Shown one piece after another: positions 2,082 through 55,780 of a stretch of DNA of 64,000 bases (within the stretch, counting starts at the first letter, position 1; each line of letters opens with the position of its first letter). The DNA is from Escherichia phage Sa157lw: sequence record OK322699.1; one strand, given 5' to 3'. The position numbers and the translations under genes are program-made. The notes below the pieces were generated by a model. That model did no database searches. It was not told the origin of the DNA and saw only the letters and a list, made by a program, of their open reading frames with translations.

Positions 2082-5000
2082 ATGGCCAACAAACCAACAC
2101 AGCCTCTTTTCCCTTTGGGTTTAGAAACTTCGGAGTCTTCGAACATAAAAGGCTTCAACAACTCCGGCACCATAGAGCATTCCCCTGGTGCAATATTGAC
2201 GTTCCCTGAAGATACTGATGTTGCGGGTCTCCCATCTTCTGTGCGTTACAATCCTGATAGTGATGAATTCGAAGGTTATTACGAAAATGGCGGGTGGTTG
2301 TCTTTGGGTGGTGGCGGAATACGCTGGGAAACGCTCCCATACGCTCCCTCCAGCAATCTGTTAGAAGGGCGCGGCTATCTCATTAATAACTCCACTGGGA
2401 CTTCTACGGTGGTTCTTCCTTCCCCTACGCGCGTTGGTGACTCGGTTACAATTTGTGATGCCTATGGTAAATTCGCGACGTATCCATTGACCGTATCTCC
2501 AGCGGGAAATAACCTGTACGGCTCCACCGAAGATATGACGATATCCACCGATAACGTGTCGGCGACTTTCACTTGGTCTGGTGCTGAGCAGGGTTGGGTT
2601 GTTACATCTGGTGTTGGCCTCGGTCAAGGTCGTGTGTACAGTCGAGAGATTTTCACTCAAATTTTAGCATCTGATACAAATGAAGTGACTCTCAACATCC
2701 CTCCGACAATTGTGGACGTGTACACTGATGGGAAACGCCTTACAGAATCCAAATATTCTTTAAATGGAAACGTAATCACTTTCGACCCTTCTTTACCTGC
2801 TGGCACTGAATTGCAGGTAATAGAATATACTCCGATTCAGTTAGGTACTGGCGGCGGGGGTTCGGGCGCTTCTGCAATCACCTGGATTTACAATGGCGGA
2901 TCCGCTATCGGCGGCGAAACCGAAATAACGCTAGACATCGTTGTAGATGATGTTCCGGCTATTGATATAAACGGGTCTCGTCAGTACAAAAATCTTGGAT
3001 TCACGTTCGACCCATTGACGAGTAAAATCACTCTGACGCAAGAACTGGAACCAGAAGATGAAGTTGTTGTGGTTATAAATGGGACACCAAACATTTATAA
3101 CCAGATCGATCGTTCTTTACAGGAAGTTGCTCGCGCCTACAATTTTACAAATGCTCAAGTTATTTTGAGCAACGATTATACTTCTGCACTGGATAATAAA
3201 GTCGTTATTTATGATACGACATCCCAACGTTCTTGGGGGATTCCATCTGGAATTCCAGCAGGTTCTACAGTGGTTTCCGTCAATGGGGATCAACTGAAAT
3301 ACAAAAATGGATCAACTGAAACCACTGTTACATTGGTGAGCGTACCAGGTAGTGCAGAGAAGTTGAAGAACGATCTGGCGTCGAACTCTGGCGCGGGCAT
3401 GTTGAAAACTTCTAGAGGTGATACCGTAGAAGAAGAATTGACTTTTATTAATCAGAATATGGTCGTTCAAATTTCAGATTTCGCGAGCCTTAGAACTTTA
3501 GTGCCAGCCACAGCGGGCATCCGAGTCAAATTGAAAGGTTATTATTCTGGTTCTGAAATCGGTGGCGGAGAATTCATTTCCGTCGCTGGTGATGCTGTTG
3601 ATGATGCTGGGATGATTGCTCGAGTGTCAAGCAGCTTTTATTGGAAGAGAATTATCGACAAACATATTACTCCTGGTATGTATGGCATCAAAGGGAATCT
3701 TCCAGAAGATCCGGCAGTGAAACTGAACGCTATGTTTACGGCTGCGGCTGCGGCTAACGCTTATGTCTTACTGAACGATGTTGATACTCTGGTCTGTAAA
3801 AGCCCTGTCGTGATCCCAGCACATTCATTAGTGTACGGCAACAAACGGACCATATTGAAACGTGATGCATCGTTGTCATATGCTAATGATTTCTTGACAA
3901 TTATGAATGATTCATATGTCAAGGGGATCTATGTTGATGGTAGCCGTTTAGATTCTCAGACTCCTCTAGAAGCAGTTTTGGTGCGCATCGCTGGGAATGT
4001 GACTATCCATAAGAGCGAGATCCGAAACAATGCTGGCTATGGCGTTGTTGGTAACGCAGTCCCTGGCATTCGTATCACCAAGAACATTTTTTCCAACTTC
4101 GCCAAAGGTTGTGTGGCTATGTTTGGCGACGGAACGGCGACGAGTGATGATCTGCAAATTAATGATAACAGATTCTTTAACCTGGGCGCGGGAACCATTT
4201 ATGTTGGCGGTTACTCAAACTTCCTTGTCGACAAAAACGTCGGAAGAGGCACTTACGTGGGTTCTCCAGGAAACCGTCTGTATGTTGTGACCAATACCAA
4301 CGGGACTATCACCCAAAGCGCTGGGCCAGATTTTGGGGCGCTGAAAACGGGTATGTTCTTTGTATTGCCTGGTGGTTCTGAACATATGATAACTGCTGTC
4401 AACAGCCTTACAAGTGTGACAGTAACCCCACCACCGCCGTCGAACGCCACAGTTCGTGCAATCGCAGGGACAGGGGATCTTCTGGGCATCCAATCATGCT
4501 CCTACGGCACCATCAGCCGTAACAACCTGACCGATTGTGTGACTTACGGAACTGGTGGAGGCACGATGGAGGGGAGCACTCTGGGTTGCAATTATGTCAC
4601 TTGGGAAGACAACTTCATCCGCAACACAGGTAAGAACGGAATCAACGTCGGGCAATCAGGTGCTGGGGTCGCCACGTGTTCTATCCTGAGGAACACTCTG
4701 ATACAGGTTGGTAACGGCGGTCAGGGTGTTGGCCCAGCGTATCTTCTGCCTTGGTTCGATACGGTAGGTATCGCTCTGTATCAGGGAAACCCAGGTTATA
4801 TGGCGAATATGGACGTCAGTGATAACAACGTCTCTACATGGTCTGGCGATCTGAATGACGGCGCTGCTTGGTTTGGTATGAGCGGTTGTACGGAAGCCAC
4901 TGTGACTTGTACAGGCAACAAATCTTCTGGTTATTCCGACGGCTATGTTCGTGGAGATATATTAGAAGTCACGTTGACAGGTTATGGTACAGGGGCGGCT

Positions 5001-5265: not shown

Positions 5266-5302
5266 CTAAATACCCCATATTGGACATCCTTTATGGGGTA
5301 TT
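5266..5302 (+). promoter_or_regulatory. late-promoter motif CTAAATACCCC (5266-5276) within an 11-bp inverted repeat (5269-5279 / 5292-5302)
   Basis: AATACCCCATA / TATGGGGTATT exact reverse complements; right arm contains the GGGG SD of the ATG at 5306. Confidence 0.6.
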
Positions 5303-5305
5303 ATC

Positions 5306-7402
5306 ATGATTTCTCAATTCAATCAGCCACACGGCTCCACTTCAATATTTGTTAACAAACAATCTATCGCTCGAAATTTCGGTGTCAAAGAAGACGAAGT
5401 CGTTTATTTCACTGCTGGTATTGATCTCAGTGGATTTAAAGTAATTTATGATGAGTCTACCCAACGGGCTTATTCTCTTCCTTCGGGTATTGTTTCAGGA
5501 ACGACTGCGATAAGTCTGAACGAACAAGCCATCCTCACTCATTCCGCTGGCTCTGTTGACCTTGGGGAATTAGCAGTAAGCCGCGAAGAATATGTGACTT
5601 TACCTGGTTCTTTTAATTTCGGCCATACCATTAATGTGAAAAATGAACTTCTTGTTCACGATGATAAAAAATATCGATGGGATGGTTCACTTCCTAAAAC
5701 TGTCGATGCTGGCTCAACACCTGAAACATCTGGTGGCGTTGGTATTGGTACATGGCTGAGTGTTGGTGACGCAGCATTTAGACAGGAAGCCAACAAAAAA
5801 TTCAAATATTCAGTAAAGTTATCTGATTATTCTACATTACAGGATGCAGCGACAGCAGCCGTAGATGGATTGCTTATTGATGTTGACTACACTTTTACTG
5901 CAGATGAGAGTGTAGATTTTAGCGGTAAAGTTTTAATCATTGAATGCAAGGGAAAATTCATTGGCGATGGTATGTTGGTTTGGAATGGTTTGGGTGCGGG
6001 TTCAGTAATTAAGAAACCGCACATGCATACTAAAACTACGCCGTATACTGTTTACCGATTCGATGCAAACGGTAATTGGGTTACAGACCCAACACAAGTT
6101 CTGGCATCTGTTCAGCAGCGTTTGGATGTTGGATATAAGCCAAATATTAACGATTTAGATATTTGGGACGACCTTCCTGATAATGTAAAAAATCAGGTTG
6201 CTGGTGCTACTTTGCGAATAATGAGCGGCGATAATATCATCGTAGAGAACCCAGAAGCTACATTTGGTGGTTATCTATTTACTTTATGTAATAGGATTCT
6301 TGTTAAGAATCCACGCAATTTTATTGCTTTGGAATCGGGCATTACATTTGAGAACCATCATACAACTGCATGGGGTACTGGCAACTGGGTTGTTGGGGGT
6401 GAGATTAAATATGGCTCTGGTTCCGCTGTACTGTTCATTCGCAATGATGGTGGTACAGACCATGATGGTGGAGTAAGGGATTTAATATCCTATCGCGTTG
6501 GAGAATCTGGTGTTAAAACCTATCAAAATGAAATAGGTGGTCGTTCAGCCAGGAACTACCGTTTAGTGTTCGACAATATAACTACAATCCAGTGTTACTA
6601 TGATGGTATTGATGTTAATGCTGACACAGGGTCGCCAACTGAACGTGTGGATGACTACTCACTCGCAGAGTATCCATGGTTCCACCTACCTACTCAACAT
6701 ATCATCCGTAATATTATTACTCGTGATTGTATGGGGATTGGTGCTTGGTGGGATGGTCAGAAAAATATTATTGATAATGTTGTTACTTATGAGGCCCATA
6801 AGGAAGGCGTCTTCGATAGGGGTACTAACAATGATATTACTAACATTACTGTAGTAGGTGCGAATAAGGATTTAACTAACCTAAATCAGATTACCTGTGA
6901 GGGAGGTAGTAGACTTCGTGGTATTAACATCCATGCATATACTACACAAGGTTACGCTATATACGCTCCGTCTTCAGAAGTAAGTAATGTTTCCTGTGCT
7001 GGTTCCGGTACTAAGAAATTACTATGTACCTATATAAGCGATATTCAGGGAGGTAATATCAATGTTCAGCATAGTGCCAACCAAATGACACTTGCAATGC
7101 AACCTGCTATGGGTGGTACTACAAACCCATCTTTGCTTATGACGGCAGATTGCCAGGTTGCTACACCAGGGGGTGAGGCAAGTATTGTCAAGCTTTCGGC
7201 AATTCAGGAGGGTGTACGTGTAGGTGAGTTTCAGCTTAACCGCTTAGGCTTTAAGCATATGAGTATACCTGCTGCCCCTTTACAATTACCAGAGAGCGCT
7301 CTGGAACATAATTCATCTATAGGATTCTTCTTCGGAAGTGACGGAGCATTGAGGTTGCTTGCTAAAAAACCAGATGGAAGTTATGTAACATACACACTTT
7401 AA
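5306..7402 (+). CDS. tailspike protein (698 aa) with N-terminal anchor domain shared with the 596-aa tailspike
   Basis: First ~140 aa align with the 10338 gene (GSTS...IARNFGVKEDEVVYFTAG...QRAYSLPS vs GSTS...IARKFGCKKSEVVYAKAG...QRAYSLPS); divergent C-terminus. Confidence 0.65.
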   Translation: MISQFNQPHGSTSIFVNKQSIARNFGVKEDEVVYFTAGIDLSGFKVIYDESTQRAYSLPSGIVSGTTAISLNEQAILTHSAGSVDLGELAVSREEYVTLPGSFNFGHTINVKNELLVHDDKKYRWDGSLPKTVDAGSTPETSGGVGIGTWLSVGDAAFRQEANKKFKYSVKLSDYSTLQDAATAAVDGLLIDVDYTFTADESVDFSGKVLIIECKGKFIGDGMLVWNGLGAGSVIKKPHMHTKTTPYTVYRFDANGNWVTDPTQVLASVQQRLDVGYKPNINDLDIWDDLPDNVKNQVAGATLRIMSGDNIIVENPEATFGGYLFTLCNRILVKNPRNFIALESGITFENHHTTAWGTGNWVVGGEIKYGSGSAVLFIRNDGGTDHDGGVRDLISYRVGESGVKTYQNEIGGRSARNYRLVFDNITTIQCYYDGIDVNADTGSPTERVDDYSLAEYPWFHLPTQHIIRNIITRDCMGIGAWWDGQKNIIDNVVTYEAHKEGVFDRGTNNDITNITVVGANKDLTNLNQITCEGGSRLRGINIHAYTTQGYAIYAPSSEVSNVSCAGSGTKKLLCTYISDIQGGNINVQHSANQMTLAMQPAMGGTTNPSLLMTADCQVATPGGEASIVKLSAIQEGVRVGEFQLNRLGFKHMSIPAAPLQLPESALEHNSSIGFFFGSDGALRLLAKKPDGSYVTYTL

Positions 7403-12128: not shown

Positions 12129-12134
12129 TCAAAC

Positions 12135-12162
12135 AACCCCGCTTCGGCGGGGTTTTTATTTC
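12135..12162 (+). terminator. rho-independent terminator (AACCCCGC-TTCG-GCGGGGTT plus T-run)
   Basis: Perfect stem and T-tract after stop at 12128. Confidence 0.65.
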
Positions 12163-12222: not shown

Positions 12223-15200
12223 ATGCAATCTACAAATCTAAACCGTCGCCCGTATTGGGACGACTGGAATCCTGGAAAACGGTTTTCACGGATTCTTTTT
12301 CGCCCGATGCCTATTAAGGTTCAGACACGTGAACTGAACCAGATGCAGACTATTCTACAAGACCAGATTGAAAAGCTGGGAAACCATCTGTTCAAAGATG
12401 GATCTATGGTTATTCCTGGCGGTCTGACGATTACTAACGCCGCTGTGTCTATGAAATTCACCCTGGCTGGTGGCACTGAGTTCACTGATCTGGAAGGGAT
12501 TACTGAACTTTATGTTCTGGGAAAAGACAATAACGCCAAAGCGCGTGTGCTATCTCTTGAACGTGATCTGTCTGCTCCGGATACGATGTTGGCCATCCTT
12601 GAAATGACAGAAGTGGGTAATGCAGATGGCTTCCACGTCAACGACAATCTGTATTTCCAAACTTATGACGTCAATGACAACTTCATTCGTATTGGTTATG
12701 GTATCGCAGCTGCGGTGACTGGTTCTATCGTCGCTCGTATGACGAAGGGCGTTTACTTCATTCGTGGGATGTTCCTTGATGTTGATGACGCGACTCTCAT
12801 CGTCGATAAAACTTCAAACACTTCTTCCCATCGCGTCGGGTTTAAAGTCACCGAAACCATCGTGACTGAATCTGAAGACGAATCCCTTTATTCAAACGCT
12901 CAGGGAACGATTAACTCCAAAGCCCCAGGCGCTCATCGTCTTCGAATAGATCTGGTCTTATCTCGATTTGATTATGATGCTGTGGTTGAAGACTTTGTTG
13001 AACTGGCCAAAGTTCGTGATGGTAAAATCCAGTCTATGGTGACTCAGTCCACCTATAATATTCTGGAAGACACGTTGGCTCAACGGACGTATGAAACCAA
13101 CGGCGATTACAACGTTTCAACGCATCAGATCGACATCCGCGAACACCTGAAAGTCAATAACAATGGTGGTGTATTCAATGCTGCTGATGGCGGCGACGAA
13201 AGTAAATTCGTGTCTGTAATGAAACCAGGTATTTCCTATGTTCGCGGTCGTCGTATCGAAAACGTCGGGGAAGAGTTGGTGATCGTTGACAAGGCACGGG
13301 ATACCGATGTCCTGAATAACACGCCTGTCGCAGTTGCTACAGGGAATTATCTGGTCACCAAGAACTCCAAAGGTGTTCCAGTAATATCTCGCACAGTGCG
13401 ATACAAGTTATTGAACGCATCTGGCGCTGCTCAAGCCACGGCGTTGTGTATATCCGCTGAACGCAATTCAACTGAATTCCGTCTGTACATGCGTGATTTG
13501 GTTGTGACTGGGGACGCGTCCACTATCACCAAAGTGTCTTATGAAGAAAGTGGGATCACCATGTTCTCTGCCGAACTGGAATCCAACCAGTTTAACCAGA
13601 GTTCTATGGTAGACCTGATCTTCTCTCTTCCGGTCTTCGGTGTTAAAACATTAGCGCCAACAGGTTCCGTGGATATCAACTACACAGTCCTCAGAACTTA
13701 TAAGGTGACGCTAGACAGCAGCGGTTCTGGTTCTATTTCAGCCCCGCTGGGATATAGTTTCTCTCCTGAATTTTCGTTGTATTCTTCTGCGAAATCCGAT
13801 GGTTCAGAAGCGCAATTTGATATCTCTGGCTCTTTGTCACTGACTGGTTCTCCGGTGGGTTCGGCTTTGCAGATTTCCCTGGGTAGCGGTAATGCTAACC
13901 AGTCAATCAATTTGCTGGCACTGATGATCCGCACTACGGCCACGATCAAAACGAAGACGATAACTGAAACCACAGAGTCTGTGACTTTTACTTCCCAAAC
14001 CAGTAGACCTCTGGCAAATCACGACGGCTGGAAATTGGTATCTGTCAAAAATGATACTGGCGCGGACGTGACTTCGAGCTTCACCCTCGACGGTGGTCAA
14101 CGCGATGCGGGATATTACAAGGCTAATCTGTTATCCACCGCCGGAGCCATTTCAGGGACGTATACGGTGGTGTATCAATACTTCGCGCATAGTTCGGGGG
14201 ATTTCTTCTCAGCGGATTCGTATACTTCAATGGATTACAAAGATATCCCGAATTATACATCCTCCACATCAGGGGCGGTGTATGGTTTGGCCGATAGCCT
14301 TGATTTCCGTCCGAAAATTACCAACGGGACATCCGACACTGATATGGTTCGCCCGAATACGGCTGTCATCCTGGACACAGAGTATTATTTGCCTCGTATC
14401 GACGCGATTTATCTGGCAGATAATGGCGTGTTTGGTGTAGCCCGTGGCATCAGTTCCAACAACCTGGCGTCCCCAGCAATACCTGCAAACTCCATGCGTT
14501 TGTATGAACTGTTGATTCCCCCATACACGCCGAATATCGATGATATACAAATTCGCACCATCGATAACCGTCGTTATACGATGCGTGATATCGGTAAACT
14601 GGAAACGCGTATTTCCAACGTTGAATACTACACCTCTCTGTCGCAGCTGGAATCTTCGGCGATGACACAACAGGTATTTGATCCAATCACGGGTAATCCG
14701 CGATTCAAAAACGGTATCGCCGCCGATCCATTCAAAGACTTCCGTCTTATTGATGATCTGTCTGAAGATTGGATGGGATCTATCGATACGGAAAATGGAC
14801 GTTTGCGTCCGTTTGTTCAACAGAACGCCGTTGACATGACTCCAGTAGGCTGGAACAAAGTGATGGATGGTATGGTGGTTTGTAACTACACGCCTGAAAT
14901 CTCCGTAAACCAAGAATACGCGACGACGACGATCAACGTTAACCCGTATGCTGTATTCAACTGGGAAGGTTTCTTGAAGATTAACCCGACCACGGATTAC
15001 TGGTTTGAAAACTACTATGTCGCCCCGCGTGTTATCAATGAAACGATCAACACTCGTGGTACTGTACAAGAAGGTTCGGTGTACGGGACGTGGCGTACTG
15101 TTTCTGTTTCTGATCGTGTTTGGGAGCCGCATGGCGCTGGTGGTGTGTGGTGGGGATACCGCTATCGCACGACTGTTTCTGCCCGTGATGTCACCACATA

Positions 15201-17061
15201 CACATACACGGACAAAACAACCACGACCATGACTGGCGAACAGATTGTGGAAACGCAGGTTATCCCATACATGCGCGAAATTGATATTTCTTTCGACGCT
15301 TCTGGGTTGCGACCTTTCACTCGCATGTATGCATTCTTCTCAGGTCGTGATGTGAATCTGTATTGCAAGCCGAATGGCGGTAATTTTGGTGACCCAATCA
15401 CCACTGATGCCAATGGCGCAGTCAAAGGCGTGTTCCGCGTTCCTCAGAACGATACGATCAAGTTCAACACAGGTGACAACGTGTTCCGCTTAACGGATAG
15501 CCCTGTTGACAGTAAATCTGCAGATGATACGCTGACCAATGCTGAAATTGTTCACAAGTCTTTCGGTAAGAAACAAGGGATTCAAAAGACCTTTGTCAAC
15601 ACTCGAGTTCTGGGTTATACCGCAAGCACCAGCACCGAAACCAGCACTTCTGAAGTTGTGGTCGATCAATGGCGTGATCCAATTGCCCAATCGTTTATGG
15701 TGGCAACTAAGATCGGTGGTGAATATATCGAAGGCGTGGAAGTATTCTTCTCCACCAAGTCACGTGATGTTCCGATCACCCTGGAAATTCGCGAGATGGA
15801 GAATGGATTACCGTCCCATACCGTCATAACTCGTAAAACTTTGAACCCGTCTGAAGTGACGATCTCTACAGACTCTTCCGGCGGAACGAAGTTCACCTTC
15901 GATTATCCGGTGTACTTGCAAGCATCGACTGAGTTTGCTATTGTTTTGTTGGCGAATACTCAGGATTACAACGCGTATATCGCGGAAATGGGCAAGAAAA
16001 ACCTTTTGTCCAACGAATATATCGCCAAGCAGCCGTATACAGGGGTGTTCTTCACTTCTTCAAACGGTTCAACATGGTCTCCCAACCAGATGGCAGATAT
16101 GAAGTTCCGTGTTTATCGTTGTAACTTTGCTGCTGGACAGAACGTTGTAACATTTGATCCGAAACTTGGACCGAAACAACGTCCGCTGGGATTGAACACT
16201 CTCAACTGTGTGAGCGGGTCTTCTGTCGTGACCGTGTTTGCGCCTGGTCATGGTTTGGTTGCTGGGAACAATGTTACTCTGTCTGAATTGACAGGTGGCT
16301 GTGGATTTACTCCTGAACAACTTAACAAAACATTTACCGTGACAGATGCGAGCTATACTTCATTCAAGATCGATGTCGGTTCAGCGGCAGACAGCAACGG
16401 GCAAATCGGCGGGGATAATGCTTCATTCTTGGGCAATTATCTGGTTGACATGTTCTATGCCAGTGTCACCAATTCAGCTCTGGAAGGTTCAATTCTGAAA
16501 TTGGAATATCGCTATCGCGATGCTACTTCCAATTCTATGTCTGATTGGGCTGAATTTGAAACTGACACTGACGTGGCGTTGCCGACTGAAGGGATCTATC
16601 GTCAGGTTGGGGATTTCCAGATCCGAGCCACCATGACGCGCAGTGAAAACAACGTGTACACCGCTCCAATGATTGATGGCGATGACCTGAGCGTAATCTT
16701 CAACTCATACGGCGTGGATCCATTTGAAGATGTCTTCAAATATGTGACAAAAGACATCGGATTTGATAACCCATGTTCGACTGTGAAGTTGTTCTTTGGT
16801 GCAATGCTCCCATCTCAGTCTTCTATGAAGGTGCAGGTGAAACTTCTTAGAGCAGGTCAGGAGATGGATAGTGTGGCTTGGGAAGATGTTACTCCAACGT
16901 CGCCTCTGGTCAACGACGGTTCTACATTCTTTGAATATGAATACGACAAGACTGTGGCGAGCAATAACCCGTTTGTTGGCCTGAAAGTCCGAGCGCTTGT
17001 ACGGGGGAACCGCGTTGCTCCTCCATCATTCAAAGACTTCCGTCTTATTGCTCTGGCATAA
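12223..17061 (+). CDS. large virion structural protein (1612 aa), function unassigned
   Basis: Long ORF between the tailspike genes and the neck genes; internal repeat of motif FKDFRLI (mid-protein and C-terminus). No firm homology recalled. Confidence 0.5.
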   Translation: MQSTNLNRRPYWDDWNPGKRFSRILFRPMPIKVQTRELNQMQTILQDQIEKLGNHLFKDGSMVIPGGLTITNAAVSMKFTLAGGTEFTDLEGITELYVLGKDNNAKARVLSLERDLSAPDTMLAILEMTEVGNADGFHVNDNLYFQTYDVNDNFIRIGYGIAAAVTGSIVARMTKGVYFIRGMFLDVDDATLIVDKTSNTSSHRVGFKVTETIVTESEDESLYSNAQGTINSKAPGAHRLRIDLVLSRFDYDAVVEDFVELAKVRDGKIQSMVTQSTYNILEDTLAQRTYETNGDYNVSTHQIDIREHLKVNNNGGVFNAADGGDESKFVSVMKPGISYVRGRRIENVGEELVIVDKARDTDVLNNTPVAVATGNYLVTKNSKGVPVISRTVRYKLLNASGAAQATALCISAERNSTEFRLYMRDLVVTGDASTITKVSYEESGITMFSAELESNQFNQSSMVDLIFSLPVFGVKTLAPTGSVDINYTVLRTYKVTLDSSGSGSISAPLGYSFSPEFSLYSSAKSDGSEAQFDISGSLSLTGSPVGSALQISLGSGNANQSINLLALMIRTTATIKTKTITETTESVTFTSQTSRPLANHDGWKLVSVKNDTGADVTSSFTLDGGQRDAGYYKANLLSTAGAISGTYTVVYQYFAHSSGDFFSADSYTSMDYKDIPNYTSSTSGAVYGLADSLDFRPKITNGTSDTDMVRPNTAVILDTEYYLPRIDAIYLADNGVFGVARGISSNNLASPAIPANSMRLYELLIPPYTPNIDDIQIRTIDNRRYTMRDIGKLETRISNVEYYTSLSQLESSAMTQQVFDPITGNPRFKNGIAADPFKDFRLIDDLSEDWMGSIDTENGRLRPFVQQNAVDMTPVGWNKVMDGMVVCNYTPEISVNQEYATTTINVNPYAVFNWEGFLKINPTTDYWFENYYVAPRVINETINTRGTVQEGSVYGTWRTVSVSDRVWEPHGAGGVWWGYRYRTTVSARDVTTYTYTDKTTTTMTGEQIVETQVIPYMREIDISFDASGLRPFTRMYAFFSGRDVNLYCKPNGGNFGDPITTDANGAVKGVFRVPQNDTIKFNTGDNVFRLTDSPVDSKSADDTLTNAEIVHKSFGKKQGIQKTFVNTRVLGYTASTSTETSTSEVVVDQWRDPIAQSFMVATKIGGEYIEGVEVFFSTKSRDVPITLEIREMENGLPSHTVITRKTLNPSEVTISTDSSGGTKFTFDYPVYLQASTEFAIVLLANTQDYNAYIAEMGKKNLLSNEYIAKQPYTGVFFTSSNGSTWSPNQMADMKFRVYRCNFAAGQNVVTFDPKLGPKQRPLGLNTLNCVSGSSVVTVFAPGHGLVAGNNVTLSELTGGCGFTPEQLNKTFTVTDASYTSFKIDVGSAADSNGQIGGDNASFLGNYLVDMFYASVTNSALEGSILKLEYRYRDATSNSMSDWAEFETDTDVALPTEGIYRQVGDFQIRATMTRSENNVYTAPMIDGDDLSVIFNSYGVDPFEDVFKYVTKDIGFDNPCSTVKLFFGAMLPSQSSMKVQVKLLRAGQEMDSVAWEDVTPTSPLVNDGSTFFEYEYDKTVASNNPFVGLKVRALVRGNRVAPPSFKDFRLIALA

Positions 17062-17687: not shown

Positions 17688-18426
17688 AATTCGCGACAAG
17701 AAATCTTTTATGAACTATGTCTTGCGTAAATTGGGCGCTCCGGTCATCCAAATTAACCTTGACAGTTCACAAGTAGAAGATGCTGTTGATGATGCTCTAC
17801 AGAAGTTTTGGGAATATCATCGCGACGGTAGCCAAGATGCGTTCTTCCTGTACCAAGTTAAGCAAGAAGATATCGACAAGGGTTATATTGAATTCCCAGA
17901 AGATATTGACGATGTGATTGAAGTTATCCCTGGACCTCCTATTGAGTCAATTGGAAACTGGGCAACTCCTCAATGGCAAATGGCCCAAGCCATGCTTGTA
18001 CCAAAAGCGGCGCTTGTGTCTATTCGTCTCATTGATTACGTTTCCATGCAACAGCGCCTGTCTGATATCACAAGCGTCTTGAATGTTCGTCGTAATTTTG
18101 TGTACAAGAAGTTCCAGCGACGCCTTTACCCGCAATTTGCTGCCACCATTGATGAAACTCTGGCTTTCCGTTGTTATCAGAATATCGACCCCGAATCGGA
18201 AGAAAACGCTGAAGCATGGAATGACATGTGGTTGAAAGCGTATGCGACTGCATTGGTTAAGCGCCGTTGGGCTGAGGTGCTTAAGAAGGCAAGAGGCATC
18301 CGTCTCCCAGGTGGTATCGAACTGGATGGTGATAGTATGTTCAGTGAGGCCGAGACCGAGATAGAGCGGTTGGAGGAAGAATTGCGTACTGGTCAGCAAT
18401 ACCCTATCGATTTTATGATGGGATAA
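17674..18426 (+). CDS. gp13: neck protein gp13
   Basis: Alignment to T4 gp13: VLRKLGAPVIQINLDSSQVEDAVDDALQKFWEYHRDG vs [37 protein letters not shown]; C-terminal LPGGIELDG vs LPGGVTIDG. Confidence 0.85.
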   Translation: MAVNKIRDKKSFMNYVLRKLGAPVIQINLDSSQVEDAVDDALQKFWEYHRDGSQDAFFLYQVKQEDIDKGYIEFPEDIDDVIEVIPGPPIESIGNWATPQWQMAQAMLVPKAALVSIRLIDYVSMQQRLSDITSVLNVRRNFVYKKFQRRLYPQFAATIDETLAFRCYQNIDPESEENAEAWNDMWLKAYATALVKRRWAEVLKKARGIRLPGGIELDGDSMFSEAETEIERLEEELRTGQQYPIDFMMG

Positions 18427-24893: not shown

Positions 24894-24899
24894 AAGATC

Positions 24900-24927
24900 A
24901 ACCCCGCTTCGGCGGGGTTTTCCTTTA
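24900..24927 (+). terminator. rho-independent terminator (AACCCCGC-TTCG-GCGGGGTT plus T-run)
   Basis: Same stem as terminators at 7418, 12135, 31257, 47268. Confidence 0.65.
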
Positions 24928-31236: not shown

Positions 31237-31256
31237 TCAACAGGTTTTGATAAACA

Positions 31257-31285
31257 AACCCCGCCATGTGCGGGGTTTTTCTTTA
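31257..31285 (+). terminator. rho-independent terminator (AACCCCGC-CATGT-GCGGGGTT plus T-run)
   Basis: Directly after the major capsid gene stop. Confidence 0.7.
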
Positions 31286-31330
31286 TAGGGATTCACTATA
31301 AGACCGCTAATAGTTTTCAATAAGTGGGCA

Positions 31331-31567
31331 ATGAACGATCATTACCTAACTTTCACAACTGGAACGCTACTCATGGCTAAAGAAACTCTGACTAAAGAAA
31401 ACTCTAACTTCGCAGAATGGCATGCAGAATTAGAGCGTGTCGCTCGTTCTCAACATGGCTCTGCCGCCGATGCTATGGCGTGGCATGAAGATTATGAGTC
31501 TGGCAAAACCCCGCGTCAGGCTTGGGAAGATGAATGGGGGTGGAATGATGCAGACTCTAATTCGTAA
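31331..31567 (+). CDS. hypothetical protein
   Basis: ORF with ATG; weak SD; no homology recognised. Confidence 0.35.
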   Translation: MNDHYLTFTTGTLLMAKETLTKENSNFAEWHAELERVARSQHGSAADAMAWHEDYESGKTPRQAWEDEWGWNDADSNS

Positions 31568-31778
31568 GATATATCTGGATAAGAACTATTTGGAATCCAA
31601 AATCGAAGTTTTCTCGGCTCAAAAAATAATTGAAGACGGTGAAACGAGATATTATCTGAAACCTGACCTTTATCTTCCAGGAAGTAGTTTGAATCGCGAT
31701 ATAATTCAGTCGGACGGTATTACTGTTCGTTGGGAAATGGCGTCACAGGAAGACAACTGTCATAGCATAACACTTTGA
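31545..31778 (+). CDS. hypothetical protein
   Basis: Internal ATG of ORF-track frame 31437-31778 with G-rich SD; overlaps previous gene end. Confidence 0.35.
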   Translation: MMQTLIRKIYLDKNYLESKIEVFSAQKIIEDGETRYYLKPDLYLPGSSLNRDIIQSDGITVRWEMASQEDNCHSITL

Positions 31779-31793
31779 AGAGAGATCTATATT

Positions 31794-32234
31794 ATGTCAA
31801 AAGAAAAATACATATTCATCAGCCCCGCTACGAAGGAGTTCTTCATCTCCGACGTGAAAGATCGTGTTGAGAAGTTCCGCTACATGCGCAGCTATGGTCT
31901 GGCATCCGGTGATATTGATTATCAGTCACTGGACAATGATCGCCAAGATCTGATCGACGACGGTTGGCGTTTAGTTCCGTCCCCTCAGTACATTCATATC
32001 ACGTTGTACTATATGAAGGACAGCGGGAAGTTCTATTCCGAAGGTGAACTCGTACTCAATCGAGGAGAAGCAGAAGCCGAACCTGCCAAAACCTGGATGT
32101 TGGCGATGGATCAGATCCGTGAATTGCTGGACTCCGGTAATCTGCCTGGCCTGATCAGGGGTTCAAAATTCGACGTGTTCGTTACTGGCCAGGGTCATCC
32201 TGGTGGATACCCACATCTGTTCCGTATTAACTGA
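31794..32234 (+). CDS. hypothetical protein
   Basis: ORF preceded by GAGAGATCTATATT element; no homology recognised. Confidence 0.5.
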   Translation: MSKEKYIFISPATKEFFISDVKDRVEKFRYMRSYGLASGDIDYQSLDNDRQDLIDDGWRLVPSPQYIHITLYYMKDSGKFYSEGELVLNRGEAEAEPAKTWMLAMDQIRELLDSGNLPGLIRGSKFDVFVTGQGHPGGYPHLFRIN

Positions 32235-32850: not shown

Positions 32851-32953
32851 ATTTAAAATTTATTCAATAAACGGGGTTTACTTCTTCAATAAACCCCGTA
32901 TACTTCATTCCATAAGCAGCACAACACTGACTCTGAAATGAAGGAACTACACC

Positions 32954-33391
32954 ATGACCACAGCAAAAGTTACCATCTACGCTTTCGACGCTTTCTCTAA
33001 ATTTGACGCATTCGTCTCCTCCGCATTTGGTATCAAAGAAGTTGAAGCAGAGAAAACTTTCTGTGGTGGACTCGGCAAGTTTGCCAACCTGAGTTTATCC
33101 CTGACAGAGTTCATGAAATCTCTTGAAGGTCACTTTGACGCCGAAACCATTCGCACTTCCTTACTCAAGAAAGACGGCACCCCTCGCAAACTGTCTGGCA
33201 AGACTAGAATTTACGATGCTGACGGCTTTACTGTGTCTGTGCATTTTACTGAAGAACCTGTGTACGAACTTTTCAGCGGGTCTGAGGACCTCACTCACTA
33301 TGTGGTCAGGAAAGGCGATTCCCGCCCTGTGTTCGAATCTGGCGACATCCTCGCCGCTATCAAAGAACTTGCGCGTCTGAATAGCCTCTAA
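32954..33391 (+). CDS. hypothetical protein
   Basis: ORF with GAAGGAA SD. Confidence 0.5.
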   Translation: MTTAKVTIYAFDAFSKFDAFVSSAFGIKEVEAEKTFCGGLGKFANLSLSLTEFMKSLEGHFDAETIRTSLLKKDGTPRKLSGKTRIYDADGFTVSVHFTEEPVYELFSGSEDLTHYVVRKGDSRPVFESGDILAAIKELARLNSL

Positions 33392-42066: not shown

Positions 42067-42531
42067 ATGGCGCGTAATACGCTGGACATCTTGAAACTTT
42101 CAGCTGTTAACGATGAGGCCAGCATCGTTGATTGTATGGTTGAAGTTCAATTGAACCAAGATAAACCAGGAATTTTTCTGGGTATCAAGGAAACGCTGAG
42201 CCGCATCGGGGTGAACACTCGTCAAGAGCCGAATACCCTGTACCAAACATGTCATATTCTGCATAAATTTGGCAGATATCACATCGTGCACTTCAAGCAT
42301 CTTTTCATGCTGGATGGGCATTACAACGGCTTTACGCGTGAAGATGTCCTGCGTATGAATCGGATTATTCGGCTTTTGGAGCAGTGGAATATGGTTAAAA
42401 TACTGCATCCGGAACAGATTACCGAAGTTGCTGATATGTCTCGAATCAAAGTTGTAAAACATGACCAAGTTTCTGATTGGAAACTGGTTCCAAAATATAC
42501 CATCCGCCCGACTCGGGCGAAAAGCGAATAA
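42067..42531 (+). CDS. regA: translational repressor RegA
   Basis: LYQTCHILHKFGRYHIVHFKHLFML and DWKLVPKYTIR match T4 RegA. Alignment suggests the true start may be the internal ATG at 42136 (MVEVQLNQDKPGIFLGIKETL vs T4 MIEITLKKPEDFLKVKETL). Confidence 0.8.
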   Translation: MARNTLDILKLSAVNDEASIVDCMVEVQLNQDKPGIFLGIKETLSRIGVNTRQEPNTLYQTCHILHKFGRYHIVHFKHLFMLDGHYNGFTREDVLRMNRIIRLLEQWNMVKILHPEQITEVADMSRIKVVKHDQVSDWKLVPKYTIRPTRAKSE

Positions 42532-42547
42532 CTGGAGTCGCTATATT

Positions 42548-43411
42548 ATGACAACTACATTTAATAAAAACGTGAGACTGAATCTGGCTTTTGGTAATGC
42601 TGCAGGGGACGTGACCGACCCCGACTTTAGCAAAATTCGCAATCAGGCAAAACTCGTGCTGGAAGAGACCCGCGAACTTCTGGAAGCGGCTTATTACGAT
42701 CATCAAGTGGTTCTAACATTAGAATTGAATCCTCGAGAAAGCGAGACGCCGACCACTACCGAAGATCTGATGAAAGCCATCATGGACGCGCAGGGTGATA
42801 TCACTACTGTTAACGACGGTGTGGCCCATATCGCGGGTTTCAATGGTGATGAGTGCTTACAGCGCGTGTTTGCTTCCAACATGAGCAAGTTTATCCGCTC
42901 TGAAGATGAAGTCGGTCCGGCTCTGGACTATTACTATTCTCGCGGTTTCCCTGATGGACAATTGCGTGTGGAAGGCGAATTCCCTCAGGCATGTATTAAA
43001 GTTAATGAAACTGTCGTTTGGAATGGTAAAGAATATCCTAAAGGGAAATTCCTTAAAAACATGGCTGTTTTCCAAGAGCCTGATTTTTCTGACATGCTGA
43101 CCAAAACTCCTTCCCGTCAGATCAACGATATCGTTGCCAGCATGGCGATTGAAGAAGGTCAGGTGTTTATCGATGATCTCAATGGCGTGGCGTTGGTATC
43201 CCCGAACACATTGGGTGTAATCCTTTCCATGGCTGTTGAAAAAACTTCTCAACCTGTAGAGATCGACGGGCAAATCGAAAGTTATGTGCCAGCGTTCATC
43301 GTGGATGACACCAATATGCCTAAGCTGTGTGGGGTGTGGGGTTCTAATGTTCGTGTTTATGCGAGCACTCCAGTGCAGAACACGGTAACACACCTCTCCC
43401 GTATCGATTAA
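42548..43411 (+). CDS. hypothetical protein (287 aa), possible MazG-like N-terminal domain
   Basis: ATG 42548 with GGAG SD; EETRELLEA segment loosely MazG-like; assignment weak. Confidence 0.35.
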   Translation: MTTTFNKNVRLNLAFGNAAGDVTDPDFSKIRNQAKLVLEETRELLEAAYYDHQVVLTLELNPRESETPTTTEDLMKAIMDAQGDITTVNDGVAHIAGFNGDECLQRVFASNMSKFIRSEDEVGPALDYYYSRGFPDGQLRVEGEFPQACIKVNETVVWNGKEYPKGKFLKNMAVFQEPDFSDMLTKTPSRQINDIVASMAIEEGQVFIDDLNGVALVSPNTLGVILSMAVEKTSQPVEIDGQIESYVPAFIVDDTNMPKLCGVWGSNVRVYASTPVQNTVTHLSRID

Positions 43412-44704: not shown

Positions 44705-44816
44705 AGAATCGCTTTACTTCATTCTTCAATAACCCCCTTTCAACGTATATTGACCTCACTTTAACGACGCGCCCATTTAGGGCGCTCAATTTGAACTGAA
44801 ACAGGAAGACTATACC

Positions 44817-46838
44817 ATGGCAGAATTCAAACCTTTCGCAACGGCTGTTAATGATAACGTGCTGGCGATGTCCGCAACTGGTCTGTTTATGACCAACGTT
44901 GATAAAGATGCTCTGTGGGATTTGTATTTGGCATCCTTCCCAGCTGGTACCAACCCGATGTACCGCGAACGCACTGAACACGACTGCACCTGCTGTAAAC
45001 AATTCATCCGTAATATCGGCGGCGTCGTGACTATCGATGCTGACCTGAACGTTATCTCGATTTGGGACAACATTGAGCTGGGTAACGAATACGACGTGGT
45101 GGCTGCGGCGCTGTCGACCTTCGTTAAACAACACGCAATCGTCGACGTGTATTTCAACGATTCTGCTAAAGTCGGCCTGTCTCATAACCACGAATCTGGT
45201 GAAGACGGCAAAATCCGCACGTATAACCATTTCCACACCGAACTGCTCGGCAGCTATGTCCTGCGTTCTGATGCTATTGCATCTAAAAAAGGTGAAATCC
45301 GACAGGCTATCGAATTATTTGAACGCGGTCTGCGTGAAATTACTCTGGAATCAGCAGAAATCGTTCTGGAATTGATTGATCAGAATTCTTTGTATCGCGG
45401 CGCTGAACATAAAGCTGCGGTGATGGGCTTCGTAGTAGCCAAGACGGCATATGAAGAAATCCCAGAATCTAACCGTTCTCTGTGGGCATGGCGCACTGGT
45501 TATCGTTCAAACAATCATGTTCCACATGGCATTCGCAACACCGTTATCGGTACTCTGTTGACTGATATCAGTGAAGGCGTGGAACTGGAAAAGGCCGTTA
45601 AGTCGTTTGAAACCAAAGTTGCCCCAGCGAACTACAAACGCCCGACGGCTCTGGTCTCCAAGTCCATGATCGAAAACGCTCAGAAAGAAGTGATTGCTCT
45701 CGGTCTGGAAGATTCGCTGGCGCGTCGTTATGCAGTTTATGACGACCTGACGATCAATAACGTTCTGTTTGCAGACCTGGCTGCTCAAAAAGCGATGGAT
45801 CCATTCGCTCAACTGGCCGCCGAAGTGAAAACGCCGACCAAGTCGCTGGATAAAGTTGAAGAGATTGGCATTGACGACTTCCTGAGCAATATCCTGCCGA
45901 AAGCGCATTCAATGGAAGTGCTGGTTGAAAACTCGCATACTGGCAACCTTATGTCTCTGGTCGCTCCGGCTATTGCAGGTGCTCCTAACCTTTTCAAATG
46001 GGGCAACGGTTTCTCATGGTCATACAACGGCGAAGTGGCCGACTCCATCAAAGAGCGTGTGAAAGCGGCTGGCGGTAAAGTCGACGGGTTCCTCCGTGTA
46101 TCCCTGGCTTGGCACAACAACGATGACCTCGATCTGCATATGTTCTTTAACAATATGGAACATGTGTACTTCCGCGATCGTCGTTCAATGACTGGTGCTC
46201 ATCTCGATATCGACATGAACGGTATGGACGGCATCGACCCGAACCGCTCTCCGGTAGAAAACATCATCTTCACTGATGAAAGAAAGCTGCGTGACGGTGA
46301 ATATCGTTTTGAGATTCACAACTACAACCAACGTGAAAAGATCGACGAAGGGTTTGAAATTGAAGTTGAATACAAAGGCGCTACGCAACGTTTTAGCCAC
46401 AATGGGTTAAAAGACCAGGGGCGCATCACTGCCGTCGTTCTGACTGTTAAAGACAAACAAGTCGTTAGCATCAAGTCTGAGCTGGCGAATGTTGATAAAT
46501 CCAAAGAAATTTGGGGCATTAAGACAGCGACCTTCCAGAAGGTACAGCTGGTCCTGAACTCACCAAACCATTGGGATGGTGAACAAACTGGCAACAAGCA
46601 CGTCTTCTTCATCTTGGAAGGTTGTGCGAATCCTGAAGGTACTCGTGGTTTCTACAATGAATATCTGAAGCCGGAACTGGATAAACATCGTAAGGTTTTT
46701 GAAATGTTGGGTAGTAAAATGAAAGTACAACCCAACGAAAACCAACTGTCTGGTTTGGGGTTCTCGACAACGCAACGCAACCATGTGTTCGTCAAAGTGT
46801 CCGGCGCGTTTAACCGTACTGTAAAAGTCATTTTCTAA
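44817..46838 (+). CDS. hypothetical protein (673 aa)
   Basis: Long ORF with AGGAAG SD; no P-loop or other motif recognised. Confidence 0.5.
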   Translation: MAEFKPFATAVNDNVLAMSATGLFMTNVDKDALWDLYLASFPAGTNPMYRERTEHDCTCCKQFIRNIGGVVTIDADLNVISIWDNIELGNEYDVVAAALSTFVKQHAIVDVYFNDSAKVGLSHNHESGEDGKIRTYNHFHTELLGSYVLRSDAIASKKGEIRQAIELFERGLREITLESAEIVLELIDQNSLYRGAEHKAAVMGFVVAKTAYEEIPESNRSLWAWRTGYRSNNHVPHGIRNTVIGTLLTDISEGVELEKAVKSFETKVAPANYKRPTALVSKSMIENAQKEVIALGLEDSLARRYAVYDDLTINNVLFADLAAQKAMDPFAQLAAEVKTPTKSLDKVEEIGIDDFLSNILPKAHSMEVLVENSHTGNLMSLVAPAIAGAPNLFKWGNGFSWSYNGEVADSIKERVKAAGGKVDGFLRVSLAWHNNDDLDLHMFFNNMEHVYFRDRRSMTGAHLDIDMNGMDGIDPNRSPVENIIFTDERKLRDGEYRFEIHNYNQREKIDEGFEIEVEYKGATQRFSHNGLKDQGRITAVVLTVKDKQVVSIKSELANVDKSKEIWGIKTATFQKVQLVLNSPNHWDGEQTGNKHVFFILEGCANPEGTRGFYNEYLKPELDKHRKVFEMLGSKMKVQPNENQLSGLGFSTTQRNHVFVKVSGAFNRTVKVIF

Positions 46839-51538: not shown

Positions 51539-51618
51539 TAGGGGTTTACTTCTTCTAAAGAATATCCTATTATTCAATAACTGGCTAACGTGGGGTTGGC
51601 TAGAAAAGGAGATACAAA

Positions 51619-52097: not shown

Positions 52098-52181
52098 TTC
52101 TATAAACTCCGGCGGGGTATGATTACCCCGCCTATTTGAAATTGCAGGAACTTATATCATGATCTCTGTCGAGGGTATAAT

Positions 52182-52469
52182 ATGACAAAGGAACAAGAAC
52201 TCGCTTTGTTCTCTATGGTTCGCAGTAATGTTAAATTGAGTTTTAGACAAGTGGACTCCATTATTGATCTTATGAAAATTAAGAATTCCATAGATAACGA
52301 TCATTTGCGCACCGCTCTTTTGGGATTGTTGGAATTCGTTTTGCGCGGATCTGATCTTGGACCAGTGAATGATATTGACGACCTGACCAAATTGTTAAAC
52401 ACTGGCGGTGATGGTTTCGATACCGCTCGTATTCTGATTAACTGTGGTCCTAACAAAGAAGAGGTATGA
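52182..52469 (+). CDS. hypothetical protein
   Basis: GAGGG SD. Confidence 0.45.
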   Translation: MTKEQELALFSMVRSNVKLSFRQVDSIIDLMKIKNSIDNDHLRTALLGLLEFVLRGSDLGPVNDIDDLTKLLNTGGDGFDTARILINCGPNKEEV

Positions 52470-54247: not shown

Positions 54248-55054
54248 ATGATTATTACTAAAAAGATCGCCGAATCGATCGTTGAAAAGAATAAGATGTT
54301 CGCGCCCAACAAAGCAAAGGTCATTCTGATTCACGAAGACGGGCGCGTCATCTTCGCTGAGAAGTTTGAGCAGGGTTGTGCTTTCTGGTTCGCAGATACT
54401 ATGCGCGAAAGCAAGCTGCAGGGCATCATCTATAAATTGACCCTGGTTGCCAAGCGCAATGATCAGGGTGATTGGGTTACGGTCTGCGATTTCAGCTCTA
54501 AGGTTGAAACGAAAGCCAAAACCCGCCAAGAAAGAATTTTAGAGGCTCAGGAAAAACTTCGGGTCGCTCGCACATCATCCGCGGAGAAGCCGGAAATAAA
54601 ACCAGCCGTTATGCCTGTCACCAATAATCCGCTCCCACCTGTGGGTCAAAAGGCTTTCGAACAATATGTTGAAAAGAGAAAAGAAGAATCTATGAAGACT
54701 CCGGTAGAAAATAATGATGAGTCTGAATTCATTTCAATACGACAGTTGTGCCCGCAAGAACAACGTTATTCTTCTCCAAATGATTTATTTGTGTCATTCA
54801 GATGCAACGGGAAGATCATCCTGTGTAAAACTCTGCGTGAACAACTACCATGGCCTAACATCAATATGATGGTGAGTCGCAATTTTAAACGATTTGCTAT
54901 TAGTGAAGGGAACGATTATCCCGTAAACAAGAGCGGAACGTATGCCAACAAACATATGTGTGGTAAGTTGTCTTTCCCTAACGATTCCGGAACCATCCGC
55001 GTTCGTTTAGAATGGGATGAAACCCTGAACATGTATGTTGGTGATATAAAATAA
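54248..55054 (+). CDS. hypothetical protein
   Basis: ATG 54248 after AAAGGAAA SD. Confidence 0.45.
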   Translation: MIITKKIAESIVEKNKMFAPNKAKVILIHEDGRVIFAEKFEQGCAFWFADTMRESKLQGIIYKLTLVAKRNDQGDWVTVCDFSSKVETKAKTRQERILEAQEKLRVARTSSAEKPEIKPAVMPVTNNPLPPVGQKAFEQYVEKRKEESMKTPVENNDESEFISIRQLCPQEQRYSSPNDLFVSFRCNGKIILCKTLREQLPWPNINMMVSRNFKRFAISEGNDYPVNKSGTYANKHMCGKLSFPNDSGTIRVRLEWDETLNMYVGDIK

Positions 55055-55111
55055 TTCAATAACATTAGGGCGGTTATTATTAAACCGCCTTTTATTTGAG
55101 AGATCTATATT

Positions 55112-55780
55112 ATGAATAAGAAGAGTCGTATCATCATCGGCGCGGATCAGGGAAATCTGTATTTTGATACAACTGGTGCTATTGCCCACGCCATCCTTCC
55201 AACAGGTATTTCTGTTTATTGTGTCGAACACCCAGATCCAGCGATCAAACGACTTTGTTACATCCATCGTGAAAAGGGATTGATTGTATTACCGGAAGGC
55301 GCAATTATGCGCGCTCGTTCTTGGCCGATCGATTTTAATTCCATGACCGCCAGAGAGATTGACGCCCGTTTCTTCGCATACAATATGAATCGAACTTTAA
55401 GGAACGAAACTCAAAGAGTTGCCCATTTCGATAATGAAACATATACCGTGACATTAGAATTTCGCGTTCTTGGTGAAGCTCTTCAGGTAAAGAAAACGAG
55501 TTGGGCAACCGAAGGGACGTTTACCAATGATTATGCTCTTATCGATAGATTGTGTAATCGGTTCCGAATTAGCCTGACTGCGAATGAAGATTTGGGAGAA
55601 TATGTATCATGGACAGCTCGTTCTCCACATATGAATGGGATCATGATGGAGAGCGGGACTCGTAATCGTGCTGTTCTTCAGCTGCTGTTGTTAGATGCGT
55701 ATTCTCGCAATCCTCTGGAATATTTGTCTCGAGAGCAAATCGACAACGCTCTTTCCCATTGCAATCATCTGGAGGTGTGA
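55112..55780 (+). CDS. hypothetical protein
   Basis: Preceded by the GAGAGATCTATATT element shared with the gene at 31794. Confidence 0.5.
   Translation: MNKKSRIIIGADQGNLYFDTTGAIAHAILPTGISVYCVEHPDPAIKRLCYIHREKGLIVLPEGAIMRARSWPIDFNSMTAREIDARFFAYNMNRTLRNETQRVAHFDNETYTVTLEFRVLGEALQVKKTSWATEGTFTNDYALIDRLCNRFRISLTANEDLGEYVSWTARSPHMNGIMMESGTRNRAVLQLLLLDAYSRNPLEYLSREQIDNALSHCNHLEV

Follow-up and report, generated by a model that had tools for sequence, protein, structure and literature searches.

The window analysed here is a stretch of 64,000 nucleotides from Escherichia phage Sa157lw (sequence record OK322699.1). It exhibits a 17-mer (GAGAGATCTATATTATG) with two exact matches, 31780-31796 and 55098-55114, both on the + strand. 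Each copy ends in an ATG that serves as an annotated start in a close relative: the ATG of the ORF 31794-32234 (gene A) is the start of the ortholog sal1 ORF120, and the ATG of the ORF 55112-55780 (gene B) that of the ortholog Mooltan_105. The initial annotation had noticed an identical 17-nt initiation region at two unrelated genes, and this is confirmed; the range 31777-31796 given there for the first copy contains the 17-mer but begins with three bases that the copies do not share. Comparison of the two proteins revealed no relatedness between them. A Pfam search gave no match for either one, and the PHROGs assignments are limited to families of unknown function. Both regions are 99-100% identical to Vi01-like phages of the genus Kuttervirus (Ackermannviridae), with FSL SP-063 and 3HA11 matching at both sites. 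The features of the window that bear on the following analysis are listed below in the order of their positions.

31774-31779, + strand: TTTGAA template element at copy A; the upstream gene 31530-31778 has its stop codon in it (TGA)
31780-31796, + strand: copy A, the start site of gene A, with a weak GAGAG(AUC) Shine-Dalgarno sequence, the spacer UCUAUAUU and the AUG
31794-32234, + strand: gene A, 146 aa, phrog_4181, labelled 'nucleotide-binding protein' in some records
32940-32956, + strand: template member GAAGGAACTACACCATG, start of the gene 32954-33391
42067-42531, + strand: RegA homologue, 154 aa, PF01818 (E-value 6e-35)
42541-42550, + strand: CTATATTATG, start of the MazG-like gene 42548-43411, directly after regA
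44791-44819, + strand: hairpin-preceded template member TTGAACTGAAACAGGAAGACTATACCATG, start of the gene 44817-46838
52111-52161, + strand: full cassette, composed of the hairpin GGCGGGGTATGATTACCCCGCC, TATTTGAAATTGCAGGAACTTATATC and ATG, which opens an 8-codon mini-ORF (52159-52185)
55055-55063, + strand: TTCAATAAC motif just 5' of the hairpin at copy B, recurring in other intergenic regions
55067-55091, + strand: GC-rich hairpin with a T-run, terminator-like and directly abutting copy B, annotated as a terminator in phage Mooltan
55098-55114, + strand: copy B, the start site of gene B, an exact 17-mer
55112-55780, + strand: gene B, 222 aa, phrog_5426, labelled 'ImpD' in some records

Copy A lies about 560 nt 3' of the major capsid gene, beyond a strong terminator (31256-31278), and copy B sits among a run of small non-structural genes. 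No third copy of the 17-mer was found in the window on either strand with up to three mismatches allowed; a search for an antisense partner at the same tolerance gave no reverse-complement match either. Outside the 17-mer the two flanks could not be aligned, except for a TTTGA with a 3-nt gap. Since the flanks are not alignable and the proteins are unrelated, a longer duplication or paralogy behind the pair is ruled out. The degree of identity was compared with that of other start sites in the window, using the 14 nt before the start codon of 76 genes delimited by a simple heuristic caller (2,850 pairs). The A/B pair matches at 14 of 14 positions, the other 2,849 pairs at 11 or fewer, and a typical pair at 4-5. 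Under a column-independent model of start sites, the number of 14/14 pairs expected is 6e-4 per window and 0.005 per genome of 210 genes, which supports a non-chance reason for the sharing. The 17-mer is one of five direct repeats of at least 17 nt in the window; another of the five is late-promoter-like and another is a terminator hairpin, as read from the sequence.

The initial annotation had also called for a search for further copies genome-wide. A scan of IMG/VR turned up at most two exact copies in any Kuttervirus genome, and a regulon built of exact 17-mer copies is thereby ruled out. Outside the Ackermannviridae, AT-rich IMG/VR contigs contain the exact 17-mer as the start site of two unrelated long ORFs (a thymidylate-kinase-like ORF in L018/L022 and a 428-aa ORF in L021). 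The 17-mer thus appears to be a generically usable start site.

Several other repeats were observed in the window. The motif CTAAATA(C/T)C is found just 5' of structural genes at 2038, 5266, 7476, 12184, 18699, 22949, 27730 and 28948 (+ strand), that is, upstream of eight called genes against 0.25 expected, with an 18-nt identical copy (CTAAATACCCCATATTGG) at 5266 and 7476. By its sequence and placement it looks like a candidate late promoter of Ackermannviridae. This motif occurs only at structural genes and is absent from the 17-mer, so that the latter is not a late promoter of this kind. A TTCAATAAC-like 9-mer is found in intergenic positions at 31316, 32863, 32885, 39795, 44725, 48679, 51573, 55055 and 57690 (+ strand), usually just 5' of a GC hairpin or before clusters of non-structural genes; with up to one mismatch it has 46 matches against 23.6 expected, and it is possibly an early/middle promoter or another regulatory element. 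The 15-mer GGGGTTTACTTCTTC, repeated at 32873-32904 and 51541-51555, contains a T4-early-like -35 box (GTTTAC), which at 32877-32904 is accompanied by TATACT at a 16-nt spacing inside a hairpin. Two different structural genes are followed by the same 23-nt terminator hairpin (CAACCCCGCTTCGGCGGGGTTTT), at 12134-12156 and 24899-24921. Both copies of an exact 24-nt direct repeat (14729-14752 and 17027-17050) lie within the 1612-aa gene 12223-17061, and an exact 18-nt direct repeat is found at 3591-3608 and 17779-17796.

Both copies of the 17-mer exhibit the expected features of a Shine-Dalgarno-led initiation region, namely a purine-rich complement of the anti-Shine-Dalgarno sequence, an ATG and a conserved ORF, genes A and B being kept as ORFs across genera. 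The Shine-Dalgarno sequence GAGAG(AUC) is placed about 8 nt upstream of the AUG in each copy. Its predicted pairing with the 3' end of 16S rRNA, in which GAG and GAUC pair with CUC and GAUC of GAUCACCUCCUUA, amounts to -6.2 kcal/mol for A and -6.0 kcal/mol for B, the window median being -6.35 kcal/mol. A+T makes up 87.5% of the spacer TCTATATT, compared with 65% on average in the window. RNA fold z-scores around the copies (+0.66 and +0.45) indicate unstructured sequence, which excludes an RNA structure or riboswitch-like element at the 17-mer. The earlier description of the copies as AU-rich initiation regions is borne out, and the annotated starts in relatives and these z-scores show them to be genuine and unstructured. 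A sigma-70 promoter over copy A (ATAACA-17-TATTAT) was rejected, the number of such hits being that expected from shuffled sequence and no equivalent being present at B; within the 17-mer region itself, TTGAAG or TTGAGA stands just 4-7 nt from TATATT. We conclude that in this Vi01-like Kuttervirus two unrelated non-structural genes use the 17-mer as their ribosome-binding region. The interval from the T-run of the B hairpin to the Shine-Dalgarno sequence is too short for a promoter, so that gene B would have to be translated from a read-through, processed or upstream-initiated mRNA; the hairpin itself would end or stabilise the upstream message.

The two copies turn out to belong to a larger set of start sites. 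These follow a common template: often a GC hairpin, then yATTTGAA(at), a purine-rich Shine-Dalgarno sequence, (A/T)CTAYATY and ATG. The window has five occurrences of the core CTAYAYYATG, each of them at the start of a gene (31794, 32954, 42548, 44817 and 55112). In 276 kb of sequence from nine genomes of Kuttervirus, Taipeivirus and Agtrevirus its count is 53, where 3.6 would be expected, with 47 occurrences at called starts, corresponding to about 12% (roughly one in eight) of the 403 called genes in the region studied; the genomes being kin, these counts are of non-independent events, and the genes were called heuristically. The extended form TTGAR-N(0-14)-CTAYAYYATG was observed 37 times in the same 276 kb against 0.1 expected, with 3-5 copies per 26 kb in each of the eight other genomes. 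The motif counts are slightly conservative, for the first regular expression used for the template missed gene B, where TTGAG overlaps the Shine-Dalgarno sequence. Within each genome the template precedes many non-orthologous genes, and it is confined to non-structural ones. An alignment of 13 non-orthologous copies yields the consensus GGcGGGGTATGATTaCCCCGCCcATTTGAAaTGAAGGAACTATATCATG, laid out as GC hairpin, yATTTGAA, purine Shine-Dalgarno sequence, spacer CTATATY and ATG. In this family copy B is a complete member with its hairpin, and copy A consists of the 3' half only. A and B are thus the two closest members of a widely shared start-site template and, for that reason, probably do not form a private two-gene switch.

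Each site was then followed across relatives. The protein-guided locus searches in IMG/VR gave only 7 and 6 close relatives, so that the comparison was moved to GenBank phage records, covering Kuttervirus (Vi01, PhaxI, EP75, barely, aagejoakim, KE31, PhiSH19 and others), Agtrevirus (MK-13, SP-9-14), Limestonevirus (RC-2014) and Taipeivirus (IME250, Menlow). Site A appears as GAGAGATCTATATT (window, Vi01, PhaxI, EP75), GAGAGAACTACATC, GAGGAAACTACATC, GAAGGAACTAYATC, GAAGGATCTATATC, GCGAGATCTATATC or GCAGGATCTATATC, and site B as GAGAGATCTATATT, GAGAGACCTATATC (Vi01), GAGAGA-CTATATC (Agtrevirus) or GAAGGAATAYATT (Taipeivirus); GAGAGAACUACAUCAUG and GAAGGAACUAUAUCAUG are natural variants of GAGAGAUCUAUAUUAUG. 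Each copy is kept at its own locus across genera, with changes that are mostly C/T transitions. The sequence TTTGAGAGATCTATATTATG at site B is unchanged in seven Kutterviruses, including PhiSH19, the gene B of which belongs to the Vi01-type allele group with 38-39% protein identity to that of the window. Nearly all Kuttervirus records have the exact 17-mer at B; at A, no more than 29 of the 191 matching phage records have it. Vi01 carries GAGAGATCTATATT at A and GAGAGACCTATATC at B, and aagejoakim GAGAGAACTACATC at A and the 17-mer at B, amounting to differences at two positions in Vi01 and three in aagejoakim. A and B do not co-vary across genomes; they are exactly alike only where the 'GATCTATATT' haplotype at A meets the near-invariant B site. 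The sites are conserved singly, and the exact A=B identity therefore belongs to some mosaic genomes only. The initial annotation had suggested a translational operator shared by the two genes, and had named a lack of conservation in related phages as one of the observations that would speak against it. The single copies are conserved and the exact pair is not; with a template shared by unrelated genes, no co-variation and the exact sequence at A limited to those 29 records at most, the two-gene version of the operator does not hold.

In four cases a mosaic junction falls at the edge of a cassette. The 17-mer and gene A of PhaxI and EP75 are about 99% identical to the window, whereas the DNA upstream is unrelated to it right up to the first G of the 17-mer. 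At B, a 63-nt island comprising the hairpin and the start site is 97-100% identical in Vi01, PhiSH19 and PhaxI, the identity going down to 60-84% in the flanking genes; in PhiSH19 this 63-nt cassette is 98% identical to the window, yet the gene behind it is a 38%-identity allele. The slot behind one hairpin cassette (52111-52185 in the window) holds three unrelated genes depending on the genome: DenV in Vi01 and aagejoakim, a gene with an Alt-like ADP-ribosyltransferase domain in PhaxI, KE31, PhiSH19 and MK-13, and in the window an unrelated 95-aa gene (phrog_4458) behind an 8-codon remnant ORF, the mini-ORF 52159-52185, which overlaps the start of that gene at 52182 (ATGA). Finally, EP75 and 'barely' differ at 5 of 14 start-site positions and at 1.5-4% of positions in the 750-nt flanks. 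Judged from the alignment, this looks like a short replaced patch, which could have been copied from another family member. The match between cassette edges and mosaic junctions indicates that the recombination component is real. Of the recombination scar that had been proposed as an alternative to the operator, the part that stands is thus the presence of junctions at the start-site edges; recombination products of A and B were not observed, nor do the two sites have homologous flanks.

Some further observations were made at these loci. Alleles of gene B ('ImpD') with about 38% protein identity share an upstream island that is 97-98% identical (window 55052-55780 compared with L032 and L038), and the slot described above corresponds to 4129-4606 in L032 and 3895-4422 in L034. 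Homing/HNH endonuclease genes are found in some relatives, at 6007-6579 and 9573-10229 of L037 (KE31) and 5763-6488 of L036 (Menlow). Their insertion points within the replication module differ, being located behind the exonuclease gene, ahead of the gene 44 homologue and behind uvsY; the window has none of these genes.

Taken together, we consider it probable that the 17-mer is an ordinary, efficient start site drawn from a recurrent and recombination-prone cassette family. The template would act as a good general-purpose initiation region, and a common template, combined with patchy recombination at cassette edges, would keep the family members similar. The identity of the two 17-mers would then be accounted for by family similarity rather than by selection for a match between A and B. 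Three points weigh against this reading: a 14/14 match is improbable under the column-independent model, and membership in the family raises that probability without fully quantifying it; the start-site differences between EP75 and 'barely' could reflect a patch copied from another family member; and TTTGAA and CTAYATY are conserved beyond the strict need of ribosome binding. This last point leaves room for a trans-acting factor.

Among the rival explanations, a short-patch ectopic gene conversion, in which site A was overwritten in the lineage of the window by 14-17 nt from B or another family member, is in our view a minor possibility. The near-invariance of site B in Kuttervirus makes it an available donor, the homology in PhaxI and EP75 stops exactly at the 5' edge of the 17-mer, and the haplotypes GATCTATAT and GAACTACAT at A are each associated with both upstream contexts and several coding alleles; the excess of start-site differences between EP75 and 'barely' is also of the kind that conversion would produce. 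However, GATCTATATY is found at A in Taipeivirus, Agtrevirus and the KE31/PhiSH19 alleles as well, so that the haplotype is old at A and an origin from B is not needed. Ordinary allelic recombination between phages gives the same pattern, and no A/B hybrid or deletion product was found. A pure coincidence of two independent start sites, with no template, factor or history in common, is highly improbable. Start sites do share constraints on composition, and the same 17-mer has arisen at unrelated gene starts in other viral contigs, but the expectation of 6e-4 pairs, the gap to the next best pair (11/14), the TTTGA upstream of both sites and their place within a strongly enriched motif family all stand against it.

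The remaining alternative is that the CUAYAUY-AUG region is a translational operator for the RegA homologue or another RNA-binding protein. Such a factor would compete with the 30S subunit and co-repress a set of non-structural genes including A and B, the 17-mer being the extreme case. RegA is indeed encoded in the window, as had been stated: besides its PF01818 domain, the protein matches PDB 1REG (E-value = 5e-27), and the gene order 45-44-62-regA is as in T4. Three of the five RNA-contact residues of T4 RegA are conserved in it (T18, R21 and W81), whereas K14, R91 and F106 are not, which makes three of the six functionally implicated residues changed. The RegA sites described so far lie over or directly beside the AUG, in A+U-rich sequence free of structure (PMC3014915). 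The 17-mer resembles them in these respects, and its last six bases, AUUAUG, are also those with which the T4 rIIB and gene 44 operators end. Only non-structural genes carry the motif, which is enriched far beyond composition. Its conservation in excess of what ribosome binding requires and the invariance of CTATATTATG at the gene directly after regA, identical in the five Kuttervirus and Taipeivirus genomes examined, are the strongest points for an operator. On the other hand, T4 RegA operators, although without a clear consensus, have a 5' poly(A) tract, and RB69 RegA ligands have UAA repeats (PMC3014915), while GAGAGAUCUAUAUUAUG contains neither an A-run nor UAA. The template is also far more sequence-specific than the T4 operators, and it was not found at the homologues of genes 45, 44, 62 and regA, the classical RegA targets. 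Together with the lack of co-variation between A and B, these differences make an operator of this type unlikely. The RegA-type site of the initial annotation is accordingly upheld in its position at the AUG, its AU-richness and its lack of structure, and not in the poly(A)/UAA elements or in the presence of the motif at the classical targets. A more elaborate version, which we regard as decidedly unlikely, would take TTTGAA, Shine-Dalgarno sequence, CUAYAUY and AUG as one dedicated cis-element of Ackermannviridae. About one in eight non-structural genes would form a translational regulon with this element as operator, read by the divergent RegA homologue or another phage RNA-binding protein; its DNA would at the same time provide a homology patch for cassette-wise gene shuffling. 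If so, the 17-mer pair would represent two full-strength operators.

Returning to the ordinary start site of a cassette family, the nearest known counterpart is found in the PeSL (promoter-early stem-loop) cassettes of T4-like phages (Arbiol et al. 2010, PMC2839356; Comeau et al. 2014, PMC4122927). Like these, the family described here is a short, repeated and conserved intergenic cassette with a Shine-Dalgarno sequence, a start codon and, in most members, a stem-loop; it precedes many unrelated, mostly non-structural genes, and it adjoins indels, allele swaps and gene replacements, as seen for the genes of the DenV slot, the gene B allele and the DNA upstream of gene A. In PeSLs, the stretch from stem-loop to Shine-Dalgarno sequence contains a sigma-70-like promoter (-35/-10). 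In contrast, only about 6-15 nt (yATTTGAA..) lie between hairpin and Shine-Dalgarno sequence here, where no promoter fits and where promoter scans found none. The stem-loop is present at B (55067-55091) and in most family members, but absent at A, and the phage family is a different one, Ackermannviridae. The family is best called a PeSL-like cassette of hairpin and start site without a promoter. As to RegA, the likeness to the T4 and RB69 systems extends to the placement of the homologue, which is encoded nearby, 3' of the gene 62 homologue.

The leader of T7 gene 10 (..TTTAAGAAGGAGATATACATATG) is a strong phage ribosome-binding site. It resembles the template in having a T-rich, TTTAA-like element, a purine Shine-Dalgarno sequence, an alternating AU-rich spacer (ATATACAT, compared with CTATATY) and ATG. 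It belongs to another phage and has no sequence homology to the template, in which TTTGAA and CTAYATY may act as enhancers. In the modular view of phage evolution of Susskind and Botstein, conserved 'linker' sequences are said to lie at gene boundaries. The cassettes are similar to such linkers as short conserved gene-boundary sequences at which mosaic junctions fall; they differ in that the conserved block, whether or not it includes a hairpin, functions as a start site. Selection could for that reason place junctions there without any recombination-promoting role; the cassette may promote exchange or only mark where exchange is tolerated.

Gene regulation in Ackermannviridae is essentially uncharacterised. 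Early promoters, translational controls and a late-promoter signal were not identified in the paper on phage CBA120, and a recent review of the family makes no mention of early promoters or translational controls. The literature searched describes no start-site/hairpin cassette, RegA operator or early regulatory signals in Ackermannviridae, and contains no transcript, ribosome or RegA-binding data for any phage of this family. When two gene starts bear an exact repeat, this alone is no indication of a private regulatory link. The cassette of hairpin and start site provides a handle for correcting gene starts, for testing whether the RegA of Ackermannviridae has a defined operator, and for accounting for the swaps of small accessory genes between phages used in biocontrol and therapy.
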